Positions 2,532 to 52,657 of a stretch of DNA of 64,000 nucleotides are shown here, one piece after another (the first letter of the stretch is position 1; every line of letters begins with the position of its first letter). The stretch is from Armatimonadota bacterium (lineage in GTDB: Bacteria > Sysuimicrobiota > Sysuimicrobiia > Sysuimicrobiales > Humicultoraceae), in contig JBBIOB010000006.1 of NCBI GenBank assembly GCA_037443565.1, forward strand, positions 4,300 through 68,299, in the 5' to 3' direction. A program made the translations under genes and the position numbers. Under the pieces are notes generated by a model. The model made no database searches and was not told the DNA's origin. It saw only the letters and a list, made by a program, of their open reading frames with translations.

Positions 2532-2560
2532 GGCGTCGAGGCCGAGGCGAGCAGAACCGT

Positions 2561-4368: not shown

Positions 4369-4370
4369 TC

Positions 4371-5441
4371 GTGGCCACCATCGCGTTGCGGCGTCTCGTC
4401 AAGCGGTTCGGCAGCACTGTTGCCGTAGACGACGTATCACTGGACATCCCGCACGGGAAGCTGGTCTGCCTGCTGGGCCCCTCCGGGTGCGGTAAGACGA
4501 CGACGCTGCGGATGATCGCCGGCCTGGAGCAGCCGACCTCCGGGGAGATCCTGTTCGACGGCGCGCCGGTGAGCAACGTCCCCCCACAGCGCCGCGGAAT
4601 CGGGATGGTCTTCCAAAACTACGCCCTGTTCACGCACATGACGACGTACGACAACCTGGCGTTTGGGCTGCGCATCCGGGGCGAGCCTCGAGAGACCGTG
4701 GACGGGGAGGTCCGCCGCATGGCGGAGGTCCTGGAGCTGACGGCGGTGCTCGACCACCCGGCCGCGCGCCTCGACCTCAGCACCATGCAGCGCGTCGCAC
4801 TGGGCCGGACGTTGATCACCAGGCCTCGGGTGCTGCTGCTGGACGAGCCGCTCAACAACATCCGGCCCGGCCTGCGAGAGATGCTCCGAGCCGAGCTGCG
4901 CCGGCTTCAGCTGGACCTCAACCAGACCGCCGTCTACGTGACCCACGATCAGGAGGAGGCGCTCTCGCTGGCCGACCAGGTCATCATCATGGCCCGGGGG
5001 AAGGTGGAGCAGATCGGGTCGCCCGACGGAGTATATCGCCGTCCCCGCAACCGGTTCGTCGCGGCTTTCGTGGGTTCTCCGACCATGAACTTCCTCCCCT
5101 GCGAGGTGACCAGCCGGGACGGGGAGCCGCACCTGGCGGGCCCCGGGTTCGTCATCCCGGCCGGACGGCGCCCGGACCTGGGACCGCGCGGGCGGCTGAT
5201 CGTCCTGGGGATCAGGCCGGAGGGGGTCCGCCTGGGCGAAGGTCCGGTTTCCGCCGTCGTCATGCTCATCCAGCCGGCCGGCGCCGACCAGATCATCGAA
5301 TTGGCCGTGGGCGACCACCGGCTGCGTGCCCTGATCCGGCCCAGCCTCAGGCTAACCATCGGACAGCAGGTGGCACTGGACTTCCCGTCGGACGAACTGC
5401 ACCTCTTCGACGCCGCCACCGGTGAGGCGCTGGATGGCTGA
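4371..5441 (+). CDS. ABC transporter ATP-binding protein (MalK-like), degenerate signature and D-loop
   Basis: Walker A GPSGCGKTT; Q-loop MVFQ; Walker B LLLDEP; H-loop VTHDQ. The signature reads LSTMQ-RVA instead of LSGGQRQRVA, and the D-loop is NNIRP. A MalK-type C-terminal regulatory domain is present. Confidence 0.8.
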   Translation: MATIALRRLVKRFGSTVAVDDVSLDIPHGKLVCLLGPSGCGKTTTLRMIAGLEQPTSGEILFDGAPVSNVPPQRRGIGMVFQNYALFTHMTTYDNLAFGLRIRGEPRETVDGEVRRMAEVLELTAVLDHPAARLDLSTMQRVALGRTLITRPRVLLLDEPLNNIRPGLREMLRAELRRLQLDLNQTAVYVTHDQEEALSLADQVIIMARGKVEQIGSPDGVYRRPRNRFVAAFVGSPTMNFLPCEVTSRDGEPHLAGPGFVIPAGRRPDLGPRGRLIVLGIRPEGVRLGEGPVSAVVMLIQPAGADQIIELAVGDHRLRALIRPSLRLTIGQQVALDFPSDELHLFDAATGEALDG

Positions 5442-6510
5442 GATCGCGCTGCGCGACGTCGCCAAGCGCTACGGTCGGATCGAGGCGGTACGCGGCCTCT
5501 CGTTCGACGTCCGCTCGGGCGAGCTGGTCTGCCTGCTCGGTCCGCCTGGGATGGGCAAGACGACTACGCTGCGGCTGATCGCAGGGCTCGAGCGGCCCGA
5601 TCGCGGCGAGATCCTGATCGACGGGCAGTCCGTCGCCGGGCAGGAACCCGGCCAGCGGGACATCGCCATGGTCTTCGAGGACCTAGCCCTCTACCCGCAC
5701 ATGGAGGGCTTCGACAACATCGCGCACCCGCTGCGCCTGCGCCGTATGCCGATCGAGGAGATCCGGCGAAAGGTCGATCACGTGGCCGACCTCCTGGGAA
5801 TCCCACACCTGCTGGAGCGCCTGCCCCACACCTTCAGCGGCGGGGAGCAGCAGCGGGTCGCCATCGCCCGGGCGATCGTGCGCGAACCCAAGATCCTGCT
5901 GCTGGACCAGCCTCTGTCGAACCTGGACGCCAAGGTGCGCGAGGTCATGATCGGCGAGCTACGGCACCTCCAGCAGCGCACGCGCCAGACTACCATCTAT
6001 GCGACCCACGACTACGAGGAAGCCATGGCGTTGGGCGACCGCATCCTTGTGCTGCGGGAGGGGACGGCCGACCAGATCGGGACGCCGGAGGAGGTCTACG
6101 CCCGGCCGGCGACCACTCTGGCCGCCACCATCACGGGCAGCCCGCCCATGAACCTGATCCCCTGCCGCTTCAGCGGCGGCCTTGCCATGGCCGACGGGTT
6201 CACCATCTCGGCCCCCGGCGCCGAGGGAGAGGGGTTTCTGGGCATCCGCCCGGAGGAGGTGCGCTTGGGCGAGGGGATCCCCGCCGTCGTAGACCTGGTC
6301 CAGCCCCTGGGCCGCAAGAAGATCGTGGAGGTCACCGTCGGGCGCGTGCGGCTCAAGGTCACCGCCGGCCCCGAGTTCGCCGGCCAGCGCGGGGACACGA
6401 CGGCGGTGGCATTCGGCCCCTCCATCGTGCGCATCTACGGTGCGGACGGCCGCCTCTCGGCCACGAGGGCGACCGGACCGCCCTTCCAGCGAGGGGGAAC
6501 GATGGGCTGA
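5422..6510 (+). CDS. ABC transporter ATP-binding protein (MalK-like), Walker-B E-to-Q and Q-loop Q-to-E
   Basis: Walker A GPPGMGKTT; signature FSGGEQQRVAIARA; Walker B ILLLDQP, so the catalytic Glu is replaced by Gln; Q-loop MVFED; D-loop SNLDA; H-loop ATHDY. Overlaps the upstream ATPase gene by 20 nt. Confidence 0.8.
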   Translation: MRRWMAEIALRDVAKRYGRIEAVRGLSFDVRSGELVCLLGPPGMGKTTTLRLIAGLERPDRGEILIDGQSVAGQEPGQRDIAMVFEDLALYPHMEGFDNIAHPLRLRRMPIEEIRRKVDHVADLLGIPHLLERLPHTFSGGEQQRVAIARAIVREPKILLLDQPLSNLDAKVREVMIGELRHLQQRTRQTTIYATHDYEEAMALGDRILVLREGTADQIGTPEEVYARPATTLAATITGSPPMNLIPCRFSGGLAMADGFTISAPGAEGEGFLGIRPEEVRLGEGIPAVVDLVQPLGRKKIVEVTVGRVRLKVTAGPEFAGQRGDTTAVAFGPSIVRIYGADGRLSATRATGPPFQRGGTMG

Positions 6511-15169: not shown

Positions 15170-16180
15170 TCAGCGGCCCACCGCGCGCACGACGAGTCCG
15201 CGGCGGGCGACGCGTGCCGGCAGCACGCCGAACCCCGCGGCGCGCAGGGCGTCCTCACAGTAGCGCTTGGCCCCGGCGCGCACAAAGCACAGCACGCTCC
15301 CTCCGCCTCCCGCGCCGCAGACCTTGGCGGCGAGCGCGCCGTGTCGCCTCGCGACCGCCATCGCGCGCTCGACGACGGGCGTCGAGACCCCGGGCGCGAG
15401 CCGGCGCCGGTGCTCCCACTCCTCGGCGAGCAGCGATCCCACCGTGTCGAGGTCGCGGACACGCAGCGCCCGTCGCATCCGGCGGGCCACGTCCGCGATG
15501 CTGCGCAGATGGTTCACCGTCGCGGGCGTACCGTCCAGGTAGGCGCGGACCACGCCCCAGTTCGTCAGGCCTGAGGCGTGCGGCGCGCCGGTGTAGGCGA
15601 TGACCAGGCGCTCCTGAAGGCCCCTGCGCAGCGCCGTACTGCCGCCCAACGGCTCGACGAGGTCGGGCGCGGCGCCGAACCGGATCGCGTTCATGCCTCC
15701 CCACACCGCGGCCAGGTAGTCCTGCCGTCCGGTGAGCGTGCGCAGCGCCTGCGCTTCGAGTCGCCACGCGGTCAGGACCAGGTCGTCGCGCCCGCGCCGG
15801 CGCTTACCCAGCCGGTCGAGCGCGGCCAGCAGGGCGACCAGCAGCGCCGACGACGCGCCGAGTCCCGATCCCGGCGGCGCCGACGACCAGAGCGTCACCT
15901 TCAGGCCCGGCGGAGGCCCGGCGAATCGCAGCGCCCGGCAGGCCGGGCCCAGCGGTTCGTCGAGGGGCATCGCGTCCAGCGAGGGCGCGGTCACCCGCTG
16001 TCGCAGGTCCCTCGAGACAATGGTGTATCCGCCCGGCGCACGCTCCAGCCGGACGCGCACCGGGATGTCGACCGCAACGTTGACGGTCCAGACGTCGTCC
16101 TCGAGCAGATATAGAGGATGGATGTCGAGCGTCCCGCCGGCCAGATCCACACGGGTCGGCGCTCGCGCCTCGACGATCAT
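15170..16180 (-). CDS. GHMP-family kinase (sugar-kinase/HddA-like N-terminus)
   Basis: MIVEARAPTRVDLAGGTLD; GHMP motif SSAPPGSGLGASSALLVALL; C-terminal KVCGAGGGGSV. The ATG overlaps the upstream gene's stop (ATGA). Confidence 0.7.
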   Translation of the reverse strand: MIVEARAPTRVDLAGGTLDIHPLYLLEDDVWTVNVAVDIPVRVRLERAPGGYTIVSRDLRQRVTAPSLDAMPLDEPLGPACRALRFAGPPPGLKVTLWSSAPPGSGLGASSALLVALLAALDRLGKRRRGRDDLVLTAWRLEAQALRTLTGRQDYLAAVWGGMNAIRFGAAPDLVEPLGGSTALRRGLQERLVIAYTGAPHASGLTNWGVVRAYLDGTPATVNHLRSIADVARRMRRALRVRDLDTVGSLLAEEWEHRRRLAPGVSTPVVERAMAVARRHGALAAKVCGAGGGGSVLCFVRAGAKRYCEDALRAAGFGVLPARVARRGLVVRAVGR

Positions 16181-16854
16181 GGGAAGAGCGCGTCCAGCGA
16201 CCGGCGGAACGCCTCGGTGGCGCGCCCCACGCCCCGCGCCGTGCGGCCGGTGACGACCGCGCCGATCATGATCGCCCATACTTGAGGGATGGCGAAGTAG
16301 CGGGCGAGGTCGTCGGGGCAGATGCGGCGCTGGGTGGGCACGATCATGCGCCGCCGCGTCACCGCGCCCAGGTGCGCCAGCGCGACCAGGTCCTCGGCGA
16401 CCGGATCGCGGCCGTAGCCGTCAGGCTCGACGATCGCCGCCTCCAGCCACTCGCCCGGCAGGGCCGCGAGCGCTCCAAGGGCGCCCGGCTGATAGCCGTG
16501 AGGAACCGCCGGGATGACGGGCACGCCCACGTCGTAGAGGAACAGCGGTAGGCGGTGCACGTAGGCGTCGATGAACGCGAACCGCCGGAGCCGGGGAACC
16601 TCGGCGGGCGTGACCATGCGCTCCTCTCCGGGCACGATCCCGGTCGGCAGGCCCACCTCGAGGACCGCCCACAGCGCCGGCTCCTCGTCGTCGAGCGGGC
16701 CGAAGCGCGTGCCCGAAGCCCGGTGGTGGACGTTGATGTGCACCTTCAACAGGTCGGCGCCCGCCGATGCGGCGGCTCTGGCGAGCGCCGCGTCGTTGCG
16801 GGGCAGGCTGACGATCAGCAGGCCTCGGCGGCCCAGCGGGTCGGGTGTCGGCAC
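16177..16854 (-). CDS. TIM-barrel-like hypothetical protein (possibly DUF556/MfnB-like or CutC-like)
   Basis: LLIVSLPRNDAALARAAASAGADLLKVHINVHH matches the N-terminal pattern of DUF556-type aldolase-fold proteins. The assignment is tentative. Confidence 0.4.
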   Translation of the reverse strand: MPTPDPLGRRGLLIVSLPRNDAALARAAASAGADLLKVHINVHHRASGTRFGPLDDEEPALWAVLEVGLPTGIVPGEERMVTPAEVPRLRRFAFIDAYVHRLPLFLYDVGVPVIPAVPHGYQPGALGALAALPGEWLEAAIVEPDGYGRDPVAEDLVALAHLGAVTRRRMIVPTQRRICPDDLARYFAIPQVWAIMIGAVVTGRTARGVGRATEAFRRSLDALFP

Positions 16855-17028: not shown

Positions 17029-17277
17029 ATGGGTAAACGAAGAGCCGGAGAGATCCGGGTCAACGAAGTCTGGTGCAAAGGGTGCGGCATCTGCGTGGCG
17101 TTCTGCGCCCCGCAGGTCTTGGAGACCGGAACCGACGGGGTGCCCCTGGTCGTCAACCTCGAGGCGTGTACGCTCTGCATGCTGTGCGAGCTGCGCTGCC
17201 CCGACTTTGCCATTGTCGTCGCCGCCGAGGAGGAGGTCGTCGAGCGGGATGTCGCAGCCCCGGCTCATGCAGGGTAA
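17029..17277 (+). CDS. 2-oxoacid:ferredoxin oxidoreductase delta subunit (2x[4Fe-4S] ferredoxin)
   Basis: CKGCGICVAFCAP ... CTLCMLCELRCP. Confidence 0.8.
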   Translation: MGKRRAGEIRVNEVWCKGCGICVAFCAPQVLETGTDGVPLVVNLEACTLCMLCELRCPDFAIVVAAEEEVVERDVAAPAHAG

Positions 17278-18343
17278 CGAAGCCTGCGTCGAGGGCGCGC
17301 TGGCCGCCGGGCTGCGCTTCTATGCCGGCTACCCGATCACGCCGTCCACCGAGATCGCTGAGATGCTGGCCGCCCGCCTGCCGCAGACCGGTGGGGTCTT
17401 CATCCAGATGGAGGATGAGATCGCCAGCATGGCGGCGGTGATCGGCGCGTCGCTCGCCGGGATGCGCGCGATGACCGCCACCTCCGGGCCGGGGTTCTCG
17501 CTGAAGCAGGAGAACCTGGGCTACGCGGCGATCACCGAGACCCCGTGTGTGATCGTCAACGTCCAGCGCGTGGGCCCGTCGACGGGCATGCCGACCTCGC
17601 CCGCGCAGGGGGATGTCATGCAGGCCCGGTGGGGTGCGCACGGCGACCATCCGGTTGTCGTCCTGTCGCCCTCGTCGGTGCTCGAGACGTACGTGCTCAC
17701 CGCGAAGGCCTTCGCCATCGCGGATGAGCTGCGCATCCCGGTCGTGGTGCTGACCGACGAGATCACCGGCCACATGCGCGAGCGTGTGGTGCTACCAGAC
17801 CCGGACACCCTGCCGCAGGCGCGGCGGCCGCGGGACGGCGATGCGCCGGACGTGCCGGCGATGGCGCACTTCGGCGAGGGCCGGCGGATGCTGGTCACCG
17901 GCCTCTACCACGACGAGACCGGATTCTGGACCGAGGATCAGGAGGTCGCCGATGGGCTCATCCGACGGCTCGTCGGCAAGGTGGAGCGCCGGCGCGAGCA
18001 GCTGGCCGCCACCGACCGCTGGTACCTCGACGACGCGCGGACCGTCGTCCTGGCTTATGGGTGCGTCGCGCGCTCGGCGCTGCGGGCCGTGCGGATGGCG
18101 CGGGAGCGAGGCCGACGCGTCGGGATGCTGCGGCCGGCGACCCTGTGGCCGTTTCCCGCCCACGAGGTCGAGGCAGTCGCCGGCCGCGTCGAGCGCATCG
18201 TAGTGCCCGAGATGAACCTTGGGCAACTCGTGGGAGAAGTCGAGCGCGCCGCCGCCGGCCGCTGCCGCGTGCTCGGGTATCATCGCGTAGACTCGGAGCT
18301 GATCCGGCCCGACGAGCTGCTGGGGGTCCTGGAGGGGGACTAG
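17267..18343 (+). CDS. 2-oxoacid:ferredoxin oxidoreductase alpha subunit (KorA/PorA-like)
   Basis: MQGNEACVEGALAAGLRFYAGYPITPSTEI is a typical alpha-subunit N-terminus. An alternative ATG lies at 17249. The gene overlaps the delta-subunit gene. Confidence 0.85.
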   Translation: MQGNEACVEGALAAGLRFYAGYPITPSTEIAEMLAARLPQTGGVFIQMEDEIASMAAVIGASLAGMRAMTATSGPGFSLKQENLGYAAITETPCVIVNVQRVGPSTGMPTSPAQGDVMQARWGAHGDHPVVVLSPSSVLETYVLTAKAFAIADELRIPVVVLTDEITGHMRERVVLPDPDTLPQARRPRDGDAPDVPAMAHFGEGRRMLVTGLYHDETGFWTEDQEVADGLIRRLVGKVERRREQLAATDRWYLDDARTVVLAYGCVARSALRAVRMARERGRRVGMLRPATLWPFPAHEVEAVAGRVERIVVPEMNLGQLVGEVERAAAGRCRVLGYHRVDSELIRPDELLGVLEGD

Positions 18344-18346
18344 GGC

Positions 18347-19177
18347 ATGAAGGAGCTGCACTACCTGCGCACCGAGCACCTGCCGCACCTCTGGTGCACC
18401 GGCTGCGGCCACGGGATCGTCCTGGGCGCGGTGGTCCGAGCGATGGAGCGCGCAGGGATCGACCGGGATAAGACCGTGGTGGTGTCGGGCATCGGCTGCT
18501 CCTCGCGCGCGGTGGGATACATGAACATGGACACCCTCCACACCACGCACGGGCGCGCGCTCGCGTTTGCCACGGGCATCAAGCTCGCCCGACCCGACCT
18601 GCGGGTGGTCGTGGTGGCCGGCGACGGCGACCTGGCGGCGATCGGCGGCAATCACCTGATCCACGCCGCCCGGCGCAACATCGGGATCACCACCATCTGC
18701 CTCAACAACGGGATCTACGGCATGACGAGCGGGCAGTACTCCCCGCTCACCCCGGCGGGCTACCGCACCACCACGTCGCCCCACGGCCACCTCGAGCGCG
18801 ACTTCGACCTCTGCCGTCTCGTGCAGGCTGCGGGGGCCACGTACGTGGCGAGGAGCACCGCGTATCACGTGCAGCAGACGATCCTCTACGCAACCCGGGC
18901 GCTGGGCCACGATGGGTTCTCGTTCCTCGAGGTCTTCTCGCCGTGCCCGACCTACTTCGGGCGGTTCAACCGCATGGGCGATCCCGTCAAGATGATGGAG
19001 TGGCTGCGCGACAGCACGGTGATGGCCGGACAGGCCGCGCGGATGACGTCTGAGCAACTGGCCGGCCGCGTGCTCCTGGGCGAGTTCCACAAGACGCAGG
19101 ATGTGCCCGAGTACGCGCGGTCGTACCGCGACCTGGTCGCGCGCCTGCGCGGAGGCGATGCGCGCGATGCCCACTGA
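18347..19177 (+). CDS. 2-oxoacid:ferredoxin oxidoreductase beta subunit (TPP-binding)
   Basis: CTGCGHG...GIGCSSR and the GDGD TPP motif. Confidence 0.85.
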   Translation: MKELHYLRTEHLPHLWCTGCGHGIVLGAVVRAMERAGIDRDKTVVVSGIGCSSRAVGYMNMDTLHTTHGRALAFATGIKLARPDLRVVVVAGDGDLAAIGGNHLIHAARRNIGITTICLNNGIYGMTSGQYSPLTPAGYRTTTSPHGHLERDFDLCRLVQAAGATYVARSTAYHVQQTILYATRALGHDGFSFLEVFSPCPTYFGRFNRMGDPVKMMEWLRDSTVMAGQAARMTSEQLAGRVLLGEFHKTQDVPEYARSYRDLVARLRGGDARDAH

Positions 19178-19766
19178 GCGCTGGGAGGCCACCCTGGCCG
19201 GATCGGGCGGCCAGGGGATCATCACCGCCGGCATCATCCTGGCCGAGGCCGCGGTGCAGGCCGGGCTGAACGCCGCGCAGACGCAGTCCTACGGCCCTGA
19301 GTCGCGCGGCGGCGCCAGCCGGGCCGAGGTCGTGATCGCCGACGGCGAGATCGACTTTCCCAAGGCGACGCGGCCCGACGTGCTGCTGGCCATGACGCGC
19401 GAGGCATACCGGAAGTACGTCGGGAAGCTCAAGGACGACGGGGTGCTGATCGTCGATGCCGACCTCGTCGGCGACGTCGCCCCAGGACCGTACCGCGTGG
19501 TCCGCATTCCCATCAGCCGGATCGCCGCCGAGGAACTGGGACGCGGCATCGTCGCCAACATCGTGGCGCTGGGCGTCGTGGTCGCCCTGACCGATGCCGT
19601 GCCCGCCGACGCGCTAGAACGGGCGGTGCTCGCGCGCGTCCCGAAAGGCACCGAGGACTTGAACCGCCGGGCGCTGCGGCGCGGGATCGAGGCCGGCCGC
19701 GACGCGGTACAGGGCGCCGAGCTGGCCCAGGCCGGTTCGGGCGCCACAGGCGGCGCCGTCGCTTAG
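19167..19766 (+). CDS. 2-oxoacid:ferredoxin oxidoreductase gamma subunit
   Basis: MPTERWEATLAGSGGQGIITAG. Overlaps the beta-subunit stop. An alternative ATG lies at 19158. Confidence 0.8.
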   Translation: MPTERWEATLAGSGGQGIITAGIILAEAAVQAGLNAAQTQSYGPESRGGASRAEVVIADGEIDFPKATRPDVLLAMTREAYRKYVGKLKDDGVLIVDADLVGDVAPGPYRVVRIPISRIAAEELGRGIVANIVALGVVVALTDAVPADALERAVLARVPKGTEDLNRRALRRGIEAGRDAVQGAELAQAGSGATGGAVA

Positions 19767-19825
19767 GAATCGGGTGCTCCGCGTGATTGTGAATCCGAAC
19801 GCCGTGCCAAGACGGGTGCTGGTGC

Positions 19826-21355
19826 TCATCCCCCGGCCCTGCCGCCCTCGAACGTCTGAGCCGCCTCCGGCAGGTGGATGTCCACCTCGAACAATCGGTC
19901 CCACGGGAAAGACAGGCCCACGAATCCCGACGGCCCGAGCGCGCGCTCGACCGGCGGGATCACCTGCTCGCGGAACACCTTGAGGGCCGCGGCCTGCACC
20001 GCCGCGCGCGCCTCACCCAGGTGCGCCCCGTTGACGCCGGGCCGCGGGACCACCTCGCTCGCAAGAACCGGCCGCACGACGGCCTGATAGCCCCAGTCGT
20101 CGAGAAGCCGCCGCGTGAGCATGCGGCGGCGCACCTGCCGCAGGCGCACCTCGCTCAACCGCGCCCGCGCGACATAGGTGAGCACGACCTGGGCCACCAC
20201 CGTACCCAGGCTGTTGCTGCACGTGTTCCATCCCGCGTAGCCCGCGAGACCAGAGAAGTCCTCGCGCGCCAGCAGCGACCGGATCAGGGCATCGTCGGCG
20301 CCGTTGGCGAACCGCACGTCGGCGCAGCCGCAGATGAGGCCCCGGCTTGAGGCCTCGACGAGCGCCGCGGCCACGGTGCGCACCGGGGCCGGCGGCGCGC
20401 CGCGCTGGTCGATGGCCTCGCGCTGCAGCACCCCGGCGAAGTTGTGCACCCACAGCAGGATGTCGCCCCCGTCCTCCACCCTCTCGCATCCCGCCGCCTC
20501 GAGGTGGCCGGCCACCGTCTCCTCCAGCGGGCTCGGCTCGTAGCGGGGCACGGTGCGCCGGGCCTCGGGGTAGGTATAGCGCACCGCGACCCGGGGCGGC
20601 CGGCCGGCCTCGTCGACGGCCAGCCGCGCGAGCAGCCGCGCGCCGAGCTCATCGGCGCCGACGGACACATGCGCGCGGCCGGCGGCGGAGCGCTCTCGAA
20701 ACCTCCGCAGCACCGCCAGGTCGGCGCGCGTCAGCCCGAGCGGCGCCGCGTCGTCCTGGCCGATGAGCAGCGCGGCCAGGCTCCCGCGCGCGGCCAGCGC
20801 GAGGAGCTCGAGGTTGACCAGCAGCTGCCGGTGCCGGCGGCGCAGCAGGTCGTCGACGACCGCGGCCGGCACGTCGCGCAGCGCGTCGAGGGCCCTGCGC
20901 AGGCGGGCATCGTCGCCGCTCTGTTCGCCGGCGTCGAGGTCACTCGAGTAGGCCCGCAGACTGTCGCCGTACGTCTCCCAGTAGCCGGGCTCCTCGCCGG
21001 CATCCCCGATGGGGACCCGCGGGTTCACCGCGCTCAGGTACGTGGGTACCCGCGCGGCCAGCCGGACGAGGCGGTCGAGGCGCCGCCAGAGGACTTCCAT
21101 GGGATCCACGCTGAGCCGCGACGCGACGAGTCCGCCGTGGACGAACACCTCGGCCGAGGCGATCAGCGCGTCGGCCGAGGGCGCCTCGCGCTCGGCCCAG
21201 CGGAACAGCGCGTCGAGGTCGGCCGGCCGGCGCCGGTGCCCGAGCAGGTCCCTGGGCGGCGTGTCCCAGGGGACGCCGAGCAGGGGCAGCAGGTCAAGCA
21301 CCACTTCGCGCGTCGCCGGGCGGTCGTCGAGCGGGATGAACAGGATCCGTCTCAC
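19826..21355 (-). CDS. DUF4127-family protein
   Basis: GTG start; VRRILFIPLDDRP matches the ILxxPLDERP N-terminus of DUF4127; about 510 aa. The first roughly 200 aa of the listed ORF 19826..21946 are an antisense read-through of the permease. Confidence 0.6.
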   Translation of the reverse strand: MRRILFIPLDDRPATREVVLDLLPLLGVPWDTPPRDLLGHRRRPADLDALFRWAEREAPSADALIASAEVFVHGGLVASRLSVDPMEVLWRRLDRLVRLAARVPTYLSAVNPRVPIGDAGEEPGYWETYGDSLRAYSSDLDAGEQSGDDARLRRALDALRDVPAAVVDDLLRRRHRQLLVNLELLALAARGSLAALLIGQDDAAPLGLTRADLAVLRRFRERSAAGRAHVSVGADELGARLLARLAVDEAGRPPRVAVRYTYPEARRTVPRYEPSPLEETVAGHLEAAGCERVEDGGDILLWVHNFAGVLQREAIDQRGAPPAPVRTVAAALVEASSRGLICGCADVRFANGADDALIRSLLAREDFSGLAGYAGWNTCSNSLGTVVAQVVLTYVARARLSEVRLRQVRRRMLTRRLLDDWGYQAVVRPVLASEVVPRPGVNGAHLGEARAAVQAAALKVFREQVIPPVERALGPSGFVGLSFPWDRLFEVDIHLPEAAQTFEGGRAGG

Positions 21356-22179
21356 CGGATGGCCCCCATCGTCAGGCCGCGCATGAAGAACCGCTGGGTG
21401 AACAGGAAGACGGCGATGATCGGCAGCGTCATCAGCACCGCGCCGGCGGCGACCGCCCTGGTGTTGTGCGCGAACAGCCCCGACAGGTAGAGGAGCCCGA
21501 CCGCCAGCGGGTACTTGTCGGGCGACTTGAGCACGATCAGCGGCCAGAGGAACGAGTTCCAGACCGCCACGAACTCGAAGAGCCCGAGCACCGCCAGCGC
21601 CGGCGCGATGACCGGGAGCATCACCCGCCACCAGATCGTCCACTCCGACGCGCCATCGATACGCGCGGCGTCCTCGAGCTCCGCCGGGACCGTCAGGAAC
21701 GCCTGCCGCAGCAGGAAGATACCGAAGACCGTCACCGCACCCGGCAGCAACACCCCGGCATAGGTGTCGACTAGACGCAGCCGCAGCAGCGTGACGAAGT
21801 TCACGATCATCCCCACGTGGCCCGGGAGCATCAGCGTGGACAGCAGCAGGGCGAAGATGATCCGGCGGCCCGGGAACTCCATGCGGGCGAGCGGATAGGC
21901 GGCCATCGAGCAGAAGAGCAGGTTGAGGGCCACGGCGATACTGCACAGCACGACGGTGTTGACGAAGAACCGCGGCAGCGGCATCGTCTCCCAGACGGTC
22001 ACGAAGTTGGCCAGCGATGGTGGCCAGGGGAGGACCTGCGGTGGAAAGCCGAAGACGCCGCCGGTGGTGCGCAGCGCGATCCCGAGCAGCCAGAGTAGCG
22101 GGAACGTGGTGAACAGCGCGAGTGCCAGCAGACCCGCGTAGCGGGCGACGAGCCCGGCGCGGCGGGCGGCGTCAGTAAT
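21352..22179 (-). CDS. Sugar ABC permease (MalG-like); N-terminus lacks a canonical start codon
   Basis: The first GTG/ATG is at 22002, yet the in-frame upstream translation ITDAARRAGLVARYAGLLALALFTTFPLLWLLGIALRTTGG is clearly TM1. The only start candidate is ATT at 22179, overlapping the upstream stop. Confidence 0.65.
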   Translation of the reverse strand: MTDAARRAGLVARYAGLLALALFTTFPLLWLLGIALRTTGGVFGFPPQVLPWPPSLANFVTVWETMPLPRFFVNTVVLCSIAVALNLLFCSMAAYPLARMEFPGRRIIFALLLSTLMLPGHVGMIVNFVTLLRLRLVDTYAGVLLPGAVTVFGIFLLRQAFLTVPAELEDAARIDGASEWTIWWRVMLPVIAPALAVLGLFEFVAVWNSFLWPLIVLKSPDKYPLAVGLLYLSGLFAHNTRAVAAGAVLMTLPIIAVFLFTQRFFMRGLTMGAIR

Positions 22180-23113
22180 AGGTCCACCCTCCCTGCCGGA
22201 AGATGCGGAAGTTCACCGCCGAGAGCACCATGACCGCGGCGGCGAGCACCACCGCCAGCGCCGCGGCATAGCCGAAGTCGAGCTGCTGGAATCCCCTGTC
22301 GAAGATATAGAAGAACATCGTGTACGTGCGGAACATCGGCCCGCCGCCGGTCATGACGTAGACTTCCTCGAACACCTTGAGGGCGGCGATCGCCGAGATC
22401 GTGGACGCGACGAGGATATACGGCCGCAGCAGCGGGAGCGTGACCCACCGGAAAACCTGCCAGCGCGACGCGCCGTCGGTCGTCGCCGCCTCCTCGTACT
22501 CGGGCGAGATCGACTGCAGCCCCGCCAGGTAGATCACCATGTAGTAGCCGAGGCCCTTCCACAGCGTGACGAACATGACGGCATACAGCGCGAGATCGGG
22601 ATGCCCGAGCCACGCGACAGGCCGCTGTAGAAGCCCGAGCCGCAGCAGCAGGTAGTTGAGCACCCCATCCTGCTCGAGCAGCCACCGCCACATCAGGCCC
22701 GCGGCGACCATCGAGGTCACGACCGGGATGTAGTAGGCGGCCCGGAGCCAGCGGATCCCCCGAAGCGGCCGGTTGGTGGCGACCGCCAGGCCGATCGACA
22801 GGATCTGGATCACCGGGACCACGAGCAGGAACTTGAACGAGTTGCCGATCGCCATCCAGAAGAACCGGTCGATCCACAGCGCGCGGAAGTGCTCGAGGCC
22901 CACCCACCGCGGGGGCGAGATGACGTCGTATTCAAAGAGGCTGAGGGCGGTGCCGAAGAGGACCGGGTAGAACGTGAATGCGCCGAGCAGTGTCAGCGCC
23001 GGCAGCAGGAACAGGTAGGCGGTCAGCGTCGTCCGCCTCTGCCGGCGGCCGAGGCCCAGAAGTCCGGCGGAGCGATCGGGCGCGCGGGCGGCGGCGCGGA
23101 AGTCAGCCTCCAT
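22172..23113 (-). CDS. Sugar ABC permease (MalF-like)
   Basis: MEADFRAAARAPDR... with six TMs and EAA loop (EEAATTDGASRWQVFRWVTLPLLRP). Confidence 0.75.
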   Translation of the reverse strand: MEADFRAAARAPDRSAGLLGLGRRQRRTTLTAYLFLLPALTLLGAFTFYPVLFGTALSLFEYDVISPPRWVGLEHFRALWIDRFFWMAIGNSFKFLLVVPVIQILSIGLAVATNRPLRGIRWLRAAYYIPVVTSMVAAGLMWRWLLEQDGVLNYLLLRLGLLQRPVAWLGHPDLALYAVMFVTLWKGLGYYMVIYLAGLQSISPEYEEAATTDGASRWQVFRWVTLPLLRPYILVASTISAIAALKVFEEVYVMTGGGPMFRTYTMFFYIFDRGFQQLDFGYAAALAVVLAAAVMVLSAVNFRIFRQGGWTYY

Positions 23114-24116
23114 CGGGGCCGGCGAGCGCCTCGCAGAGCCGGCGCAGCGATTCGACGTAGCGGTAGTTGATGGACGTGTGGTCGTCGTCGAACTCGGCGT
23201 GCTCGTGCCGGATACCGAGCGCCTCGAGCCGGCGGTGGAGCTGCCGGGCGCCGAGATGCAGGTGGTACTGGTCGCGGCTCCCGCACTCGATGTAGAGGAG
23301 CCGCAACCGACGCAGCGCACCGACATAGCCGGGCGCCATGCGCAGCGGGTCCCACGCCAGCCACCGCGCCCAGACCGCCTCGACGATCTCGCCGGTCTGC
23401 GGGTCGAACGGCAGGTCGAACCGGTAAGGCAGGCGAGAGGGATTCGGCGAGTACGCCATGGCCATCGCGGCGATATTCACCGCGGTGATCGCGTCGCCGC
23501 CCTTCTTGGGCATCTCGAGGAAGGCGCGGAGGAACGCGTCGACCCCGCCGTGCTTGGCGACGATCCCGCAAGACTTCCAGAAGTCGGGCATGTAGCAGGC
23601 TTCGAAGAACATGTCGCCCGAGTGCGACGCCGCGGCGCCAAACACGTCGGGGTGGCGCATGGCCAGGACCAGCGCGCCGTATCCGCCGCTCGACTTGCCG
23701 TCGATCCCCCGGTGGGCCGGCGAGGGCAGCGTCCGATAGCGGCGGTCGATGTGCGTGACGAGCTCGTCTGCCACGAAGTCCTCGTACCGGCCGGTGGCCT
23801 CGGAGTTCAGATACTGGCTGCCGCCGAACCGCGTGAAGCCATCGGCCATGACCAGGATCGCCGGCGGCGCGCCCGCGGCGATGACGCGGTCCATGCATTC
23901 AGGAAGGGACGGCACCCAGGGGTTGGCGTTGACCGCCGAGAGCCCGAACCCGGTGAACCCGTGCAGCCAGTAGATCACCGGATACCGGGTGGCGCCGTGA
24001 TCGTAACCCGCCGGGAGGTAGATGGGGATCCGGCGGACATGCGGGTCGTCGAGCGGATTACCGGCCAGGACCCGGCTCTCGATCTCGTCGATGACGACGC
24101 GGCCGGCCTTGCTCAT
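23103..24116 (-). CDS. Alpha/beta-hydrolase esterase (putative carbohydrate esterase)
   Basis: GKSSGGYGAL (GxSxG) and an esterase-D-like fold signature. Confidence 0.7.
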   Translation of the reverse strand: MSKAGRVVIDEIESRVLAGNPLDDPHVRRIPIYLPAGYDHGATRYPVIYWLHGFTGFGLSAVNANPWVPSLPECMDRVIAAGAPPAILVMADGFTRFGGSQYLNSEATGRYEDFVADELVTHIDRRYRTLPSPAHRGIDGKSSGGYGALVLAMRHPDVFGAAASHSGDMFFEACYMPDFWKSCGIVAKHGGVDAFLRAFLEMPKKGGDAITAVNIAAMAMAYSPNPSRLPYRFDLPFDPQTGEIVEAVWARWLAWDPLRMAPGYVGALRRLRLLYIECGSRDQYHLHLGARQLHRRLEALGIRHEHAEFDDDHTSINYRYVESLRRLCEALAGPDGG

Positions 24117-24595
24117 GGCGCAGGCGGTGTCGGGACGACGACCTCGATCCGGTCGCCTCGGCGGATCCGGCCGCCGCCGGTCGTCCCGACGACGCGGGCC
24201 AGGATGCCTCGCCGGCCCACCAGCGTCTGCCGCAGCGCCTCGGGGTCGGTCACCCTGTTGAGCTGCCCGATGACCTCGCAGGGTTCACAGGGCCCGCTCA
24301 CTTCGAGATCGACATCGCCGACGCGCAGCCTGGTCCCCGCGGGCGCGGCGTCGAGATCTGGCAGGTCCACGGTCAACTGCTCGCGGAGCGCCCCGTGGGC
24401 GAACCCCAGCGCATCTAGGACCCGACGATCCACGAGCAGGACCTGCCGGCTTGTGTTGGGCTTCACCTTGCCGTGGAAGTCCCCCTCGAGGCCGTGCGCG
24501 ATCAGGGCGCGGGCTTCCTCAACGAGCCGCGGGAGTGCGTCGCGCGCCGGCTGCAGGTGGATCGAGAGCACGGTTCCGATCTGTGCCACCGTCAT
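24113..24595 (-). CDS. MOSC domain-containing protein
   Basis: 160 aa; GDFHGKVKPNTSRQVLLVD ... GPCEPC is MOSC-like. Confidence 0.6.
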   Translation of the reverse strand: MTVAQIGTVLSIHLQPARDALPRLVEEARALIAHGLEGDFHGKVKPNTSRQVLLVDRRVLDALGFAHGALREQLTVDLPDLDAAPAGTRLRVGDVDLEVSGPCEPCEVIGQLNRVTDPEALRQTLVGRRGILARVVGTTGGGRIRRGDRIEVVVPTPPAP

Positions 24596-24616
24596 TCCTC
24601 CGACCCGGAGTCTACC

Positions 24617-25930
24617 CTAGAGACGTCCATTCCACTGGCCGACGGCCCAGTCCAGCGCGTCCTTCGGACTCCGCTTGCCGTAGAAGGCGCTCTCTATCGC
24701 CTCGCGGAAGATGCGAAACAGGTCGCCCGAGTGCGGGACCACCACGCTCAGGTCGCGCGCCAGCGGCAGGTCGGCGGCGGCTACCTTGCGCGCCACGTCC
24801 TCGGGCGCGGCCCCTCCGCGACGGAAGAACGGATCGGCGGCCGCCTGCTTCGTCGATGGGAAGACCACGACCAGGCGGCTGAAGGCGAGCTGGTTCTCGT
24901 CGCTAGTCACAAACAGGGCGAAGTCGACCGCGGCCTGTGCGTTTCGGCTGGCCCGCGGCACGGCCACGGTCATGGTGGCCAGGTGGAGCGTGTTGCCCCT
25001 GCCCCTGGGATAGCCGGCGACGAAGGTCTGCGCGTAGACGTCCGGATTGTCCTGCTTGACCCGCAGCAGGAACTGCGGCCCGGTGGTCAGCATCCCGAGC
25101 TGCCCGGCGCTGTAGCGCTCGGTCGCGCCCAGGTAGCCGCGCCTCAGCGTGTCCTCGGGAAAGTAGTCGGCCCGAAACAGGTCGACGTATCGCGCCAGGT
25201 ACTGCACGTGCTCGGGCGAGTTGAAGACCGCCCGCTTTCCGTCGCGGCTGAGAACCGGCAGCCCGTTCTCCTGGAAGCGGTGCAGCAGCCGCAGCCCGTC
25301 CACATTGGGCATGAACCCGTAGATCCCCGTGCGGTCCTTGATGACCCGCGCGTGCCGGATCATCTCGTCCTCGGTCGTGGGTGGCTCGCTCGGGTTCAGA
25401 CCGGCGCGGCGATAGATCGCGACGTTATACGCGACTACGCTGGGCGCGACGTACCACGGCACCGCGTAGGTCCGCCCGCGCACCTGACCGGATCGCCAGA
25501 GCCCGTCGAAGTAGCGCGCGCGGACGTCGGGGGAGACGGCGCCGTCCATGTCCACCAGGGCGTTGCGCTCGGCCAGGCGCACCGTCATCTCGACGTTGAG
25601 GTTGACGACGTCGGGCGCCACCCGACCGGCGATCGCGGCCAGCAGACGCTGCTCGATGGCTTGGGACTGCACATCCACCCAACGGACCTGGACGCCCGCG
25701 TTGGCCCGCTGGTAGGCGGTGATCAGGCCGTTGATGTAGTCGTTGAAGAACGGCTGCAGCGAGATGGTCCAGAATTCGAGGGTGACTGCAGGTGTTGCAG
25801 CGGCTGGCACGACCGCTGCAACCGCGACGGCCAGGGCGAAGATACATACGAGGCCGCCCCATAGCCTCGACGGTGAGGCGACACCCGGGCGGCGCGTGAT
25901 GGGTGGAGCGGCTGACATTACTCGGCGCAT
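24617..25930 (-). CDS. Sugar ABC transporter substrate-binding protein
   Basis: Signal/TM segment (LWGGLVCIFALAVAVAAVV), family-1 SBP length and composition. First gene of the minus-strand operon. Confidence 0.75.
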   Translation of the reverse strand: MRRVMSAAPPITRRPGVASPSRLWGGLVCIFALAVAVAAVVPAAATPAVTLEFWTISLQPFFNDYINGLITAYQRANAGVQVRWVDVQSQAIEQRLLAAIAGRVAPDVVNLNVEMTVRLAERNALVDMDGAVSPDVRARYFDGLWRSGQVRGRTYAVPWYVAPSVVAYNVAIYRRAGLNPSEPPTTEDEMIRHARVIKDRTGIYGFMPNVDGLRLLHRFQENGLPVLSRDGKRAVFNSPEHVQYLARYVDLFRADYFPEDTLRRGYLGATERYSAGQLGMLTTGPQFLLRVKQDNPDVYAQTFVAGYPRGRGNTLHLATMTVAVPRASRNAQAAVDFALFVTSDENQLAFSRLVVVFPSTKQAAADPFFRRGGAAPEDVARKVAAADLPLARDLSVVVPHSGDLFRIFREAIESAFYGKRSPKDALDWAVGQWNGRL

Positions 25931-25971
25931 CGCCTCGCAGGTTCTGGCGGCGGCCGGAAGACTCCTTCCTA

Positions 25972-26946
25972 CTATAGCGGCCGTGCCTCGACGACGTGGA
26001 AGGTGCGCAGCCTCCCGTCCGGGCTCGGCCGCCACTCCACCTCGATCGGATGCGCGAAGTCCGGAGCAAGCCGCCCATGCTCGATCCAGTGGCGGCCGTG
26101 CGGATCCCCGGCGAGTGCCGGCCCCGCCTTGACGACCAGGCGCTGTGGCCGGTCGACCATGCACACCTCCTCAAGGGCGGACAGCGCGCCCAGGGCCTCG
26201 ACGATGGCGGCGCGCAGCGCTGTGGGCGGATCAGGCCGCACATTGACCAACCCGACGTTCTGCCGCAGCGGGCCGATGATCTTGACGTTGGCCAAGTCCG
26301 CCTCGAACCCGGCGTCGGCGAGCACCCGCAGTAGCGTCTCGTTGGCCTCGGCGACCGCTCGACCGTGGTAGTTGGGGTTGATCAGCGGCTTCAGCAGGTG
26401 CTTGAGCTTACACCCCTCGCGGCCGGTGTGCTCGCCGATGCGCGGGACGCGCAGCCCCAGCTCATCGGCCAGTGCACGGATCTGCGGCTTGTCCAAATCG
26501 AGCAGCGGCGAATAGTACCCGCCGTGCAGCTTGAGGCCCATCTGTCCCCAGGTGTCGCTGCGGTTCGAGCCGGTCAGCACCAGCCGACCGCGCGCCGCGG
26601 CCCGGACCATGCCCAGCTTGATTTCCCGGGTACAGCGGTTGCAGGCCGGACCGCCGCGCTGGACGACGTGCTGCATCCCCTGTCCCAGCAGGCAGCGCTG
26701 CTGCAGCCCGAGCTGCTCGGCCATCTCCAGCACGATGGCGTTGCCTCGGCGGTAGGCGTACTGGCCCATGTTGACGGTGACCAGAAGGACGCTGGCCGCA
26801 CCGATGGCGTCGCGCGCGAGCGCGGCCACGGTCGAGGAGTCGAGCCCGCCGCTGAACGCCACCGCGACCGGCGCTCCACCGGTGACCTCGCGGATCTCAT
26901 CGATGAGCGCCTGCGCTCGGACCGGAAGTGTCGCCGCCAAAGCCAT
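25972..26946 (-). CDS. PP-loop ATP pyrophosphatase (LarE/TIGR00268-like) with a C-terminal extension
   Basis: VAVAFSGGLDSSTVAALA (SGGxDS PP-loop). Confidence 0.65.
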   Translation of the reverse strand: MALAATLPVRAQALIDEIREVTGGAPVAVAFSGGLDSSTVAALARDAIGAASVLLVTVNMGQYAYRRGNAIVLEMAEQLGLQQRCLLGQGMQHVVQRGGPACNRCTREIKLGMVRAAARGRLVLTGSNRSDTWGQMGLKLHGGYYSPLLDLDKPQIRALADELGLRVPRIGEHTGREGCKLKHLLKPLINPNYHGRAVAEANETLLRVLADAGFEADLANVKIIGPLRQNVGLVNVRPDPPTALRAAIVEALGALSALEEVCMVDRPQRLVVKAGPALAGDPHGRHWIEHGRLAPDFAHPIEVEWRPSPDGRLRTFHVVEARPL

Positions 26947-27055
26947 GGTGCCTCAATTATACCCGTAGACTGAGCGGTGACACCGATGGAGGAACTTGCC
27001 GGATGCATGAGAACAAATGGCAGGAGTCCATGTGGGCTTTACCAGGAGGTGACAG

Positions 27056-27409
27056 ATGAGCACTCAGCCTGGCTCCGCCGAGCAGTCCAACAAGCTGCTC
27101 GCCGCGCTCGCGTACCCTATCTGGATCATCGCCCTCATCATCGTCCTGACCGACATGAAGAACGATCCGTTCATGCGGCGCCACGGGTGGACTGCGCTGT
27201 TCTGGGGCATCGCGTGGCTTGTCATCTGGGTCGCCGTGATGATCCTCTCCGCCATCCCCTTCCTGGGATTCCTGGTCGCGATCCTGAGCTTCCCAATCAT
27301 CTGGCTGGCCTGGTTCATTCTATCGATCTACTATGCGCTCCAGACGTATAATGGTAGGGAATTTACCATCCCGGTCGTGAGCGACTACGCCAAGCGCTAC
27401 GGAGGGTAG
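27056..27409 (+). CDS. DUF4870-family small membrane protein
   Basis: RBS aggaggtg; KLLAALAYPIWIIALIIVLTD...FMRRHGW; three or four TMs. Confidence 0.6.
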   Translation: MSTQPGSAEQSNKLLAALAYPIWIIALIIVLTDMKNDPFMRRHGWTALFWGIAWLVIWVAVMILSAIPFLGFLVAILSFPIIWLAWFILSIYYALQTYNGREFTIPVVSDYAKRYGG

Positions 27410-27638
27410 AACACCTCCGCCGAGGGAGCAGTTCGGATGTTGCCCCAACCCTTTGGTTGACGCTGACCGCTACGATCTAGCCGGTTCCGCCTCCGGTCCC
27501 CCCGGAGGGTCTGTCGGTCTTTTCCCGCACAACCACGGCACGTCCGCGCGGGAGCCGCCGCGCCTGCGCATTCCCTGCGACCTCGCGCTCCTCCTGACCA
27601 CCCTGCAGTGTCTACCAGCCTGCAGGGAGGTGCGCGAG

Positions 27639-51807: not shown

Positions 51808-51831
51808 GAAAGCCGTGCGGGGGACGCTGAC

Positions 51832-52641: not shown

Positions 52642-52657
52642 GCCTTCGGAGGCGCGA

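Follow-up and report, generated by a model that had tools for sequence, protein, structure and literature searches.

The closest described counterparts of the locus reported here are the nan operons, in which the sialate lyase NanA is encoded with the ROK-family kinase NanK, the epimerase NanE and a SAT2/SAT3-type importer of carbohydrate uptake transporter family 1 (CUT1) that has no ATPase of its own, the esterase NanS and the oxidoreductase NanOx being accessories. CUT1 systems commonly borrow an ATPase of the MalK/MsiK type. Further precedents are MupG (DUF871), a 6-phospho-N-acetylmuramidase, and NamZ (DUF1343), an exo-N-acetylmuramidase, both former domains of unknown function (DUFs) that turned out to be glycosidases, and oxidative glycoside cleavage, either in two steps, by a glycoside 3-dehydrogenase and then a lyase or hydratase, or by the NAD-dependent mechanism of glycoside hydrolase (GH) families GH4 and GH109. 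Known oxidative systems use GMC or Gfo/Idh/MocA oxidoreductases together with xylose-isomerase-like TIM-barrel lyases. The locus itself is an operon of an Armatimonadota bacterium with a Fervidifonticultor-like genome, on the minus strand of a 64,000-nucleotide (nt) stretch of contig JBBIOB010000006.1 (GenBank assembly GCA_037443565.1, positions 4,300 to 68,299; the whole stretch, of about 70% G+C, is called the window, and its own numbering is used throughout). It encodes a PP-loop protein, an extracellular solute-binding protein (SBP), a MOSC-domain protein, an esterase, two permeases and, last, a protein of the family DUF4127 (PF13552). The operon type is familiar; what is new is DUF4127, which is unpublished in the literature searched, has no structural relative in the PDB and occupies a defined position in a pathway.

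In the pathway proposed here, the SBP and the two permeases would form a CUT1 importer, energized in trans by a MalK-like ATPase encoded elsewhere, that would take up an N-acetylhexosamine oligosaccharide. This substrate, most likely a piece of a glycan from a bacterial cell envelope, would probably carry negative charge as well as O-acetyl groups. The esterase would strip O-acyl groups in the cytoplasm, and DUF4127, acting as a hydrolase or lyase and without a cofactor, would then cleave or unmask the product so as to free an N-acetylhexosamine, most likely N-acetylmannosamine (ManNAc). In other lineages, a ROK kinase would phosphorylate this product and NanE would epimerize it to N-acetylglucosamine 6-phosphate (GlcNAc-6-P), with DUF4127 filling the slot that the sialate lyase NanA holds in nan operons and a PF12831 flavoprotein as its partner in most lineages. 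We give an even chance to the proposal in its general form, in which DUF4127 needs no cofactor and acts before ROK and NanE on glycans that contain N-acetylhexosamine, probably as ManNAc, and that are probably O-acetylated and derived from the envelope; the specific assignment as a beta-N-acetylmannosaminidase-like glycosidase or lyase is tentative, at half that strength of belief or somewhat less.

The proposal is drawn from the genes that accompany DUF4127 in other genomes. We compared 97 DUF4127 loci by clustering all open reading frames (ORFs) against one another, scanning representatives of the clusters with Pfam and running tblastn with reference proteins; for about half of the loci, the screen consisted of a fixed set of query proteins alone. 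NanE lies within a few kb of DUF4127 in at least 18 of the 97 loci, from six phyla, and, with NanE a single gene per genome, chance co-location is estimated at well below 1%. Around 20 distant loci from Chloroflexota, Limnochordia, Bacilli, Clostridia, Capsulimonas, Betaproteobacteria and Actinomycetota (± 5 kb), the commonest families were BPD_transp_1 (16 genes), NanE (10), PF12831 (8) and ROK (8), followed by SBP_bac_1 (7), GH38 (6), GntR/UTRA (4) and SIS (3); neither the NanA-type aldolase nor NagA was among the 25 most frequent families shown of the 89 detected. No DHDPS/NanA gene was seen in the Pfam-annotated loci, NanA never having been used as a query against the window. Relatives of the operon resemble nan operons in pairing an ATPase-less CUT1 importer with ROK, NanE, GntR or RpiR, an esterase and an oxidoreductase, DUF4127 standing in NanA's place; they differ in that DUF4127 has a multi-domain alpha/beta architecture unrelated to the DHDPS-type aldolase NanA, and in that the oxidoreductase is an FAD enzyme of PF12831 rather than a Gfo/Idh/MocA NAD enzyme.

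Several loci display the association in compact form. One (L096) consists of ROK, a DUF4127-PF12831 fusion, NanE, GntR, a binding protein and two permeases, and another (L036) of SIS, ROK, DUF4127 and NanE. Plasmid pCAR50 of Carnobacterium has NanE, a HAD phosphatase, DUF4127, a phosphotransferase system (PTS) EIIC gene and RpiR. Longer arrangements are found in Carboxydochorda subterranea (NanE, RpiR, binding protein, two permeases, ROK, PF12831, GHL10, DUF4127, binding protein, GH20, two permeases) and on plasmids of Priestia megaterium (binding protein, two permeases, PF12831, GH38, ROK/RpiR, AXE1 esterase, DUF4127, ROK, ManA, PTS EIICB, NanE, RpiR), and one metagenomic locus combines DUF4127 with GH2, GH20, GH3 and GH125. 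Among the 150 best representatives of the family, DUF4127 is fused to PF12831 in five proteins and to ROK in two. This tight coupling, sometimes amounting to fusion, to a redox enzyme in glycan-utilization operons recalls the oxidative cleavage systems, from which the window differs in that its DUF4127 gene has no neighboring PF12831 gene; nothing relevant on PF12831 was found in the literature searched.

The DUF4127 protein of the window (19826..21355, minus strand; 509 aa, GTG start) is a full-length family member, matching PF13552 with 380 bits against a cut-off of 27 (E 1.9e-113) over profile positions 1-488 of 489. The original prediction had called the family uncharacterized, which agrees with our finding no mention of DUF4127 or PF13552 in the literature searched. 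At 50% identity the family comprises 2,687 representatives (E up to 1e-3, among 1.84 billion proteins), distributed over Armatimonadota, Chloroflexota, Cyanobacteria including Melainabacteria, Wallbacteria, a few Betaproteobacteria and Actinomycetota and, within Bacillota, Negativicutes, Desulfotomaculum-type bacteria, Limnochordia, Symbiobacteriaceae, Heliobacteria and plasmids of Bacilli. The best homologs are from metagenome-assembled genomes of Armatimonadota, the nearest named one being "Candidatus Fervidifonticultor" from hot springs. The window protein holds all 24 invariant columns of a 39-sequence alignment that spans several phyla. The invariant motifs are PxDxRP after strand 1, DD(T), GADE, ADVxxANGxD and YxGWNTxxNxxG, and the residues invariant across the family (D10, R12, R80, R113, Y125, R174, D201, D202, D235, D346, Y373, W376, N377, T378, N381, R416, Y423, R428, and R487) amount to five Asp, seven Arg, one Trp, three Tyr, two Asn and one Thr, with no invariant His or Cys in that alignment. 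Such a pattern would be expected of a carbohydrate-active site that binds an anionic sugar. An AlphaFold2 model built from a 33-sequence alignment (pLDDT 92.9, pTM 0.92) has several alpha/beta domains. A comparison with glycoside hydrolase and deacetylase folds, suggested in the original prediction, yielded no match: a Foldseek search of the PDB gave nothing above a template-modeling (TM) score of 0.22 and no whole-protein match, and a profile search of PDB sequences gave nothing. The Foldseek matches to xylose isomerases (TM about 0.2) were discarded as noise.

The N-terminus of the window protein (VRRILFIPLDDRP) begins directly at the conserved first strand, with no signal peptide, so that the protein would be cytoplasmic and act on an imported fragment. 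By contrast, Sec- or lipoprotein-type signal peptides directly precede the conserved first strand in 36 of 142 DUF4127 representatives, including those of Negativicutes (Pelosinus, Phascolarctobacterium, and Selenomonadaceae), Wallbacteria and Desulforadius/Desulfotomaculum loci. With about a quarter of the family exported, the shared chemistry cannot need ATP, nucleoside triphosphates (NTPs) or sugar phosphates. This speaks against three family functions, those of a kinase, a nucleotidyltransferase and a GlcNAc-6-P deacetylase, all of which were down-weighted accordingly, and for a hydrolase, a lyase or a deacylase with an envelope glycan as its substrate. The export data bear in particular on the idea that DUF4127 is a de-N-acetylase, replacing NagA (Amidohydro_1) or resembling the archaeal diacetylchitobiose deacetylase, which would complete a route from ManNAc through ManNAc-6-P, GlcNAc-6-P and glucosamine 6-phosphate to fructose 6-phosphate. 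A deacetylase was also suggested in the original prediction; the L036 operon would hold a complete pathway if DUF4127 deacetylates, and the absence of NagA from the 25 most frequent families around the distant loci would fit as well. We nevertheless consider this idea quite unlikely, given the exported quarter of the family (we know of no GlcNAc-6-P outside the cytoplasm), the lack of an invariant His or Cys for a catalytic metal, and the direct fusions of DUF4127 to ROK and PF12831 and not to NanE or SIS.

An envelope polymer as the source of the glycan is suggested by a further group of loci. In three of Desulforadius/Desulfotomaculum type (L040, L055, and L083), the gene for an exported, lipoprotein-type DUF4127 has an LCP ligase gene on one side and, on the other, two PF12831 genes, DUF5693 and a gene for a CsaB-type pyruvyl transferase, and in L091 DUF4127 abuts a fused TagO-TagA(WecG) gene; these are biosynthetic contexts for ManNAc-containing wall polymers. 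They allow a more ambitious proposal, namely that DUF4127 founds a new carbohydrate-active family, usually working with PF12831, that would cleave or unmask beta-linked, possibly pyruvylated or O-acetylated, ManNAc of secondary cell-wall polymers or linkage units, with a part in periplasmic envelope remodeling and, once ABC or PTS transporters have brought the material in, in cytoplasmic recycling by way of ROK and NanE, in Terrabacteria (Negativicutes, Cyanobacteria, Chloroflexota, Armatimonadota, and clostridial lineages). This proposal is doubtful. Its link to pyruvylated ManNAc through CsaB draws on the three related Desulfotomaculum-type loci and on what we take to be the taxon distribution of SLH and CsaB, and is retained for this proposal only. 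The literature searched describes no enzyme that cleaves or unmasks beta-linked ManNAc of secondary wall polymers, and contains nothing on DUF5693 or on an "N-acetylmannosaminidase."

Closer to the window, the neighborhood of DUF4127 is conserved in more detail. The close clade was defined by a DUF4127 at least 40% identical to that of the window; genes within ± 6 kb were counted in its 17 non-redundant loci that have at least 4 kb on both sides. Coupling of DUF4127 to CUT1 permeases, first noticed in the window, proves to be conserved in all 17 of these and in about 18% of distant loci. The binding protein is present in 16 of the 17, a GH20-like protein of 730 aa in 11, a PF12831 FAD-dependent oxidoreductase immediately after DUF4127 in 11, the PF00756 esterase in eight and MOSC in three; a 225-aa protein with no Pfam family occurs in 12 and a GHMP kinase in 10. 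The clade-wide cluster is therefore one of binding protein, GH20-like protein, optional MOSC and esterase, two permeases, DUF4127 and PF12831 flavoprotein, of which the window holds a trimmed version: the GH20-like and PF12831 genes are lacking both there and in its 92%-identical relative L001, and no remnants of them were found in the window, where tblastn gave no hits and the relevant intergenic gaps measure 21 and 59 nt. In the window and L001, a four-gene 2-oxoacid:ferredoxin oxidoreductase cluster (17029-19766, plus strand; ferredoxin, alpha, beta and gamma subunits) lies between DUF4127 and the 225-aa gene. The corresponding position holds the PF12831 flavoprotein in most relatives, with or without DAO and serine hydroxymethyltransferase (SHMT) genes, and the oxidoreductase cluster seems to have been inserted or to be a replacement. 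Three loci (L019, L021, and L022) have a DAO-type (PF01266) FAD oxidoreductase gene between DUF4127 and PF12831, and SHMT follows PF12831 in nine; these neighbors hint at handling of amino acids, possibly D-amino acids or glycine, alongside the sugar pathway. The original prediction, confined to the window, missed the most informative partners: the PF12831 flavoprotein, which the window lacks, NanE and ROK, and the 225-aa TIM-barrel gene 3 kb downstream of DUF4127.

That gene (16177..16854, minus strand), which matches no Pfam or NCBIfam model, is confidently predicted to encode a phosphate-binding TIM barrel and has about 690 homologs with invariant K37, H39, H44, E57, D96, E138, Q175, and R176. 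In the clade it follows DUF4127, after PF12831 and SHMT, and in L091, a distant locus, the two genes share 4 nt at the start of DUF4127, so a functional link is likely, even though in the window the inserted oxidoreductase cluster has split the two genes. On the modeled fold it is an unannotated family of putative phosphosugar enzymes. Identification as a divergent NanE, for which GLLIVS and IGAVVTG motifs had been picked out by eye, found no support beyond the fold class: PF04131 gave no hit, and hhalign against 15 NanE sequences reached a probability of 48%, over the C-terminal 71 columns only. In 13 loci the 225-aa gene is followed by the gene for a GHMP-family sugar kinase (15170..16279 in the window, minus strand; Pfam GHMP_kinases_N and _C, true start uncertain), which may consequently belong to the same pathway; its nearest NCBIfam models, HddA (heptose-7-phosphate 1-kinase, E 5e-26) and fucokinase, both score far below their cut-offs. 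Many Armatimonadota DUF4127 proteins (those of L004 and L005; P0053, P0055, P0067, P0069, P0070, P0082, and others) also carry a C-terminal GrpB domain (PF04229, UPF0157), a predicted nucleotidyltransferase-fold domain whose fusion a hydrolase function leaves unexplained. Together, these features raise the idea of salvage and activation, in which DUF4127 with GrpB, the GHMP kinase acting at the anomeric position and the phosphosugar barrel would make the nucleotide sugar needed for envelope polymer synthesis from a salvaged amino sugar. The commonness of the GrpB fusions in the Armatimonadota clade, the anomeric kinases HddA and fucokinase as nearest relatives of the GHMP kinase, the modeled phosphate-binding barrel and the TagO-TagA, LCP and CsaB genes beside DUF4127 would all accord with it. 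It is nonetheless very unlikely, as the exported members cannot use ATP or NTPs, DUF4127 has neither a nucleotide-binding motif nor a kinase-fold match, the nucleotidyltransferase activity of GrpB is undemonstrated (the sole experimental paper on GrpB/UPF0157 in the literature searched concerns CoaE folding), and both the 225-aa gene and the gene for the kinase may be no more than passengers in the synteny of a single clade.

Seven co-directional genes, from 25972-26946 down to 19826-21355, make up the operon. The first encodes the PP-loop ATP pyrophosphatase (25972..26946; 324 aa; Pfam NAD_synthase E 3.5e-7, QueC E 7e-6), followed by the SBP (24617..25930; 437 aa; SBP_bac_1 E 3e-27), the stand-alone MOSC-domain protein (24113..24595; 160 aa; MOSC E 2.4e-11), the alpha/beta-hydrolase esterase (23103..24116; 337 aa; PF00756 E 2e-23), the MalF/UgpA-like permease (22172..23113; 313 aa; BPD_transp_1 E 3e-17), the MalG/UgpE-like permease (21352..22179; 275 aa; BPD_transp_1 E 4e-14) and DUF4127. 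All have Pfam matches above gathering scores, which bears out the identities, order, strand and coordinates originally given for the six genes from the SBP onward. In order from PP-loop to DUF4127, the junctions are +41, +21, −4, −11, −8, and −4 nt: the PP-loop and SBP genes are 41 nt apart, the SBP and MOSC genes 21 nt; MOSC and the esterase overlap in ATGA, the MalF ATG at 23113 overlaps the esterase stop, the two permease genes overlap by 8 nt, and MalG and DUF4127 overlap in GTGA. The overlaps of 4 to 11 nt ascribed to the six genes thus hold at four of their five junctions but not between SBP and MOSC. Similarly, the LarE-like PP-loop gene placed 42 bp upstream on the same strand is indeed there, but at 41 nt, and it is LarE-like only in the generic PP-loop sense.

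In every operon gene the G+C content at third codon positions (GC3, 0.86-0.93) exceeds that at second positions (0.45-0.51), the signature of real genes in this genome. DUF4127 and its 92%-identical ortholog differ by 113 synonymous as against 41 non-synonymous codon changes, and of the 168 nucleotide differences between them 122 are at third codon positions. The original prediction had named failure of the approximately 510-aa DUF4127 ORF in coding-potential tests as grounds for rejecting it; on GC3 and synonymous bias, coding potential is strong. The locus is one real operon. Long antisense ORFs on the plus strand (up to 480 aa; 23178-24620, 20444-21490, 19874-20350, and others) form cross-locus clusters in naive comparisons; GC3 and cross-locus clustering excluded them as artifacts of the 70% G+C content, not genes. 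A promoter-like site (GTGTCA, 16-nt spacer, TATAAT; 26956..26983, minus strand) lies 10 nt upstream of the PP-loop start codon and is the sole sigma-70-like match in 19500-27500, where shuffled sequences would give 0.6. It is probably the operon promoter, with a very short leader, the position being suggestive and the count alone not significant, and it suggests that the PP-loop gene heads the transcript.

The MalG-like gene is unusual in its start. The first 70 codons of its open frame contain no ATG, GTG or TTG, and the only plausible start is an ATT at 22179, which overlaps the MalF-like stop and is preceded, at a distance of 8 nt, by the Shine-Dalgarno sequence GGGAGGG. In a comparison with L001, L002, L010-L013, L015-L017, and L020, the aligned codon is ATG in two relatives (L013 and L015) and ATT, ATC or ATA in eight others. 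A non-canonical AUU-type start therefore seems to be conserved in this clade, judging by the alignment. Gene callers set the start 40-70 nt downstream of it, so that part of the first transmembrane helix is lost.

The transporter is a CUT1 system by its SBP_bac_1 protein (cluster-B/D-type) and two BPD_transp_1 permeases of MalF and MalG type, whose best NCBIfam neighbors are UgpA/GlcT and UgpE/GlcU/MalG, respectively. As the original prediction observed, no ABC ATPase gene lies within the operon, but this is unremarkable: three MalK-like ATPase genes with OB_MalK/TOBE domains are present elsewhere in the window (4371-5441, 5422-6510, and 52658-53755) and borrowing is normal for CUT1 systems, so that a "missing ATPase" was rejected as a special feature. 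The window contains two further CUT1 sugar ABC systems, both on the plus strand. The system at 960-6510 ends with the first two of these ATPase genes in tandem, and that at 49607-55032 includes a MalK-like ATPase gene of its own (52658-53755), after which comes a gene for an MGH1-like (GH63-type) glycoside hydrolase (53752-55032). The extra ATPase of the 960-6510 system is a candidate energizer of the ATPase-less DUF4127 operon.

The SBP bears an N-terminal signal or anchor sequence, and among solved structures it is closest to Synechococcus MsBP (6wpm; E 1e-55, a full-length match). The operon shares with ChiEFG of Thermotoga (KEGG K17244-6, putative chitobiose) and with MsBP of Synechococcus MITS9220 (6wpm/6wpn) the full-length SBP match and two CUT1 permeases, and GH3/GH20 beta-N-acetylhexosaminidases and SIS deaminase-like genes are associated in DUF4127 relatives; unlike the arrangement here, ChiEFG and MsBP have no link to DUF4127, MOSC or an esterase in the literature searched, and the substrate of ChiE has never been validated. 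MsBP, assigned to KEGG K17244 (ChiE), is unusual in the positive charge of its cleft; its preference is for modified sugars that are anionic, with no binding of GlcNAc; it preferred phosphorylated sugars in the presence of zinc, and is encoded next to mreBCD (PMC8938411).

The cell-wall context of MsBP introduces the main rival explanation, that the operon recycles muropeptides. The importer would take up GlcNAc-N-acetylmuramic acid (MurNAc), with or without peptide, or anhydro-muropeptides, the esterase would remove the 6-O-acetyl group of MurNAc, and DUF4127, with PF12831 in relatives, would process MurNAc, for instance by removing the stem peptide or by oxidative cleavage of the lactyl ether. 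Besides the location of the MsBP gene, this would explain the AnmK, GH3 (NagZ-like), SIS and trypsin-like genes beside the L004 cluster and the PF00144 "beta-lactamase" and GH3 pair of L008, which resembles AmiE-NagZ of Bacillus subtilis; the DAO-type enzymes of L019, L021, and L022 could oxidize D-amino acids, and the periplasmic DUF4127 of Negativicutes fits a cell-wall substrate. Outside the close clade, however, NanE, ROK and alpha-mannosidases dominate, with MurQ, AnmK and amidases not among these dominant partners, and NanE would be left unexplained, there being to our knowledge no role for it in MurNAc routes. The SIS proteins, moreover, are two-domain, NagB-II/GlmS-like proteins of 345-377 aa, not of MurQ size. 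A peptidoglycan-recycling set, with NagZ-type GH3 and MurQ or AnmK by the transporter, is partly present in L004 (AnmK, GH3, SIS) and L008 (PF00144, GH3); the window has neither a GH3 nor an SIS gene. On balance, muropeptide recycling is improbable, if less so than the other alternatives. The systems of MupG and NamZ are instructive in a different way, in that there too an uncharacterized family stood beside an ABC or PTS transporter, an RpiR/MurR regulator and an enzyme converting the released sugar phosphate, and DUF4127, like NagZ and NamZ, has exported as well as cytoplasmic members; the differences are that neither is related to DUF4127 in sequence or fold, and that the downstream enzyme is NanE, not MurQ.

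The esterase belongs to the CE1/esterase-D group (84 bits against a cut-off of 22), with the nucleophile motif GKSSG (GxSxG), and, having no signal peptide, is predicted to be cytoplasmic. Its PDB relatives are 8z91, deposited as "Esterase" (E 6e-41; no accompanying paper was found), and then CE1 feruloyl esterases. The association of DUF4127 with esterases, already remarked on in the original prediction, recurs: PF00756 is present in 10 related loci and in eight of the 17 close-clade loci, and an unrelated CE7/AXE1 esterase gene lies directly upstream of DUF4127 in a Priestia megaterium plasmid. The recurrence makes an O-acylated substrate plausible. That prediction had gone further, to a part for DUF4127 in processing an acylated or otherwise modified imported glycan, with acetylated xylo- or manno-oligosaccharides as candidate substrates; spelled out, the operon would import acylated plant-type oligosaccharides (these or feruloylated sugars), and DUF4127 would be an accessory glycosidase. 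After 8z91 the esterase is indeed nearest to CE1 feruloyl and acetyl-xylan esterases, AXE1, GH38 and ManA accompany DUF4127 in Priestia, and GH2, GH125 and GH38 mannosidases occur in some loci. Yet the annotated loci contain no xylanase, beta-mannanase or xylose/arabinose catabolic gene (about half of the 97 having been screened by fixed queries only), the recurrent partners across phyla are amino-sugar enzymes (NanE, ROK, GH20, GH3, SIS, GntR/UTRA, RpiR) together with alpha-mannosidases, and the SBP is ChiE/MsBP-like. Plant oligosaccharides are accordingly a poor fit and, of all the alternatives weighed, the least credible.

Two members of the operon are not accounted for by the proposed pathway. 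The PP-loop protein has an SGGLDS motif and an NAD-synthase/LarE-like N-terminal domain; its match to the LarE model TIGR00268 is confined to that domain and scores 46 bits against a cut-off of 150, so that "LarE-like" is no more specific than "PP-loop ATPase," and its weak PDB matches are to GMP synthase, NAD synthetase and LarE. The gene stands at the head of the cluster in 11 related loci. LarA-family (Lar_N) genes lie less than 8 kb from DUF4127 in two distant loci (L090, 17033-18370; L091, 2118-3377), which may coincide by chance with LarE being the nearest named relative of the window's PP-loop protein. The MOSC protein matches its family at 44 bits against a cut-off of 22.7, carries the conserved cysteine motif GPCEPC and has no PDB sequence match. 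Its presence was initially thought an unexpected oddity; it occupies the same slot in L001, L006/L007, L013, and L034, and is a recurrent yet optional member of the cluster rather than a one-off intrusion.

Several points weigh against the assignment of DUF4127 to the release of ManNAc. The window itself has no NanE, ROK, PF12831, GH20, GH3 or SIS gene, NanE and ROK proteins from related loci giving no tblastn hit anywhere in it, and the pathway is thus extrapolated from relatives that are 27-50% identical; the nan-type gene set of many relatives is to that extent not shared by the window. Half of the distant loci have no informative neighbors, and some relatives adjoin peptidoglycan-recycling genes (AnmK, GH3, PF00144, and SIS), not ManNAc genes. 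The GrpB fusion points toward the activation of a sugar more than toward its catabolism, as do the GHMP kinase and the phosphosugar barrel, and the assignment explains neither the PP-loop ATPase nor MOSC. The substrate, the direction of the pathway and the chemistry of DUF4127 are inferred.

The assignment nevertheless places DUF4127, a family spread over at least seven phyla, in one gap, the delivery of ManNAc to the ROK/NanE route in operons that have no sialate lyase. The fused or minimal operons of L096, Carnobacterium pCAR50 and the Priestia megaterium plasmids are directly testable systems. If DUF4127 fills this gap, it would stand for a hitherto undefined enzyme activity and perhaps for a CAZy family of its own, would give a function to the PF12831 flavoproteins of glycan-utilization loci, and could reveal how diderm Terrabacteria recycle envelope polymers other than peptidoglycan.

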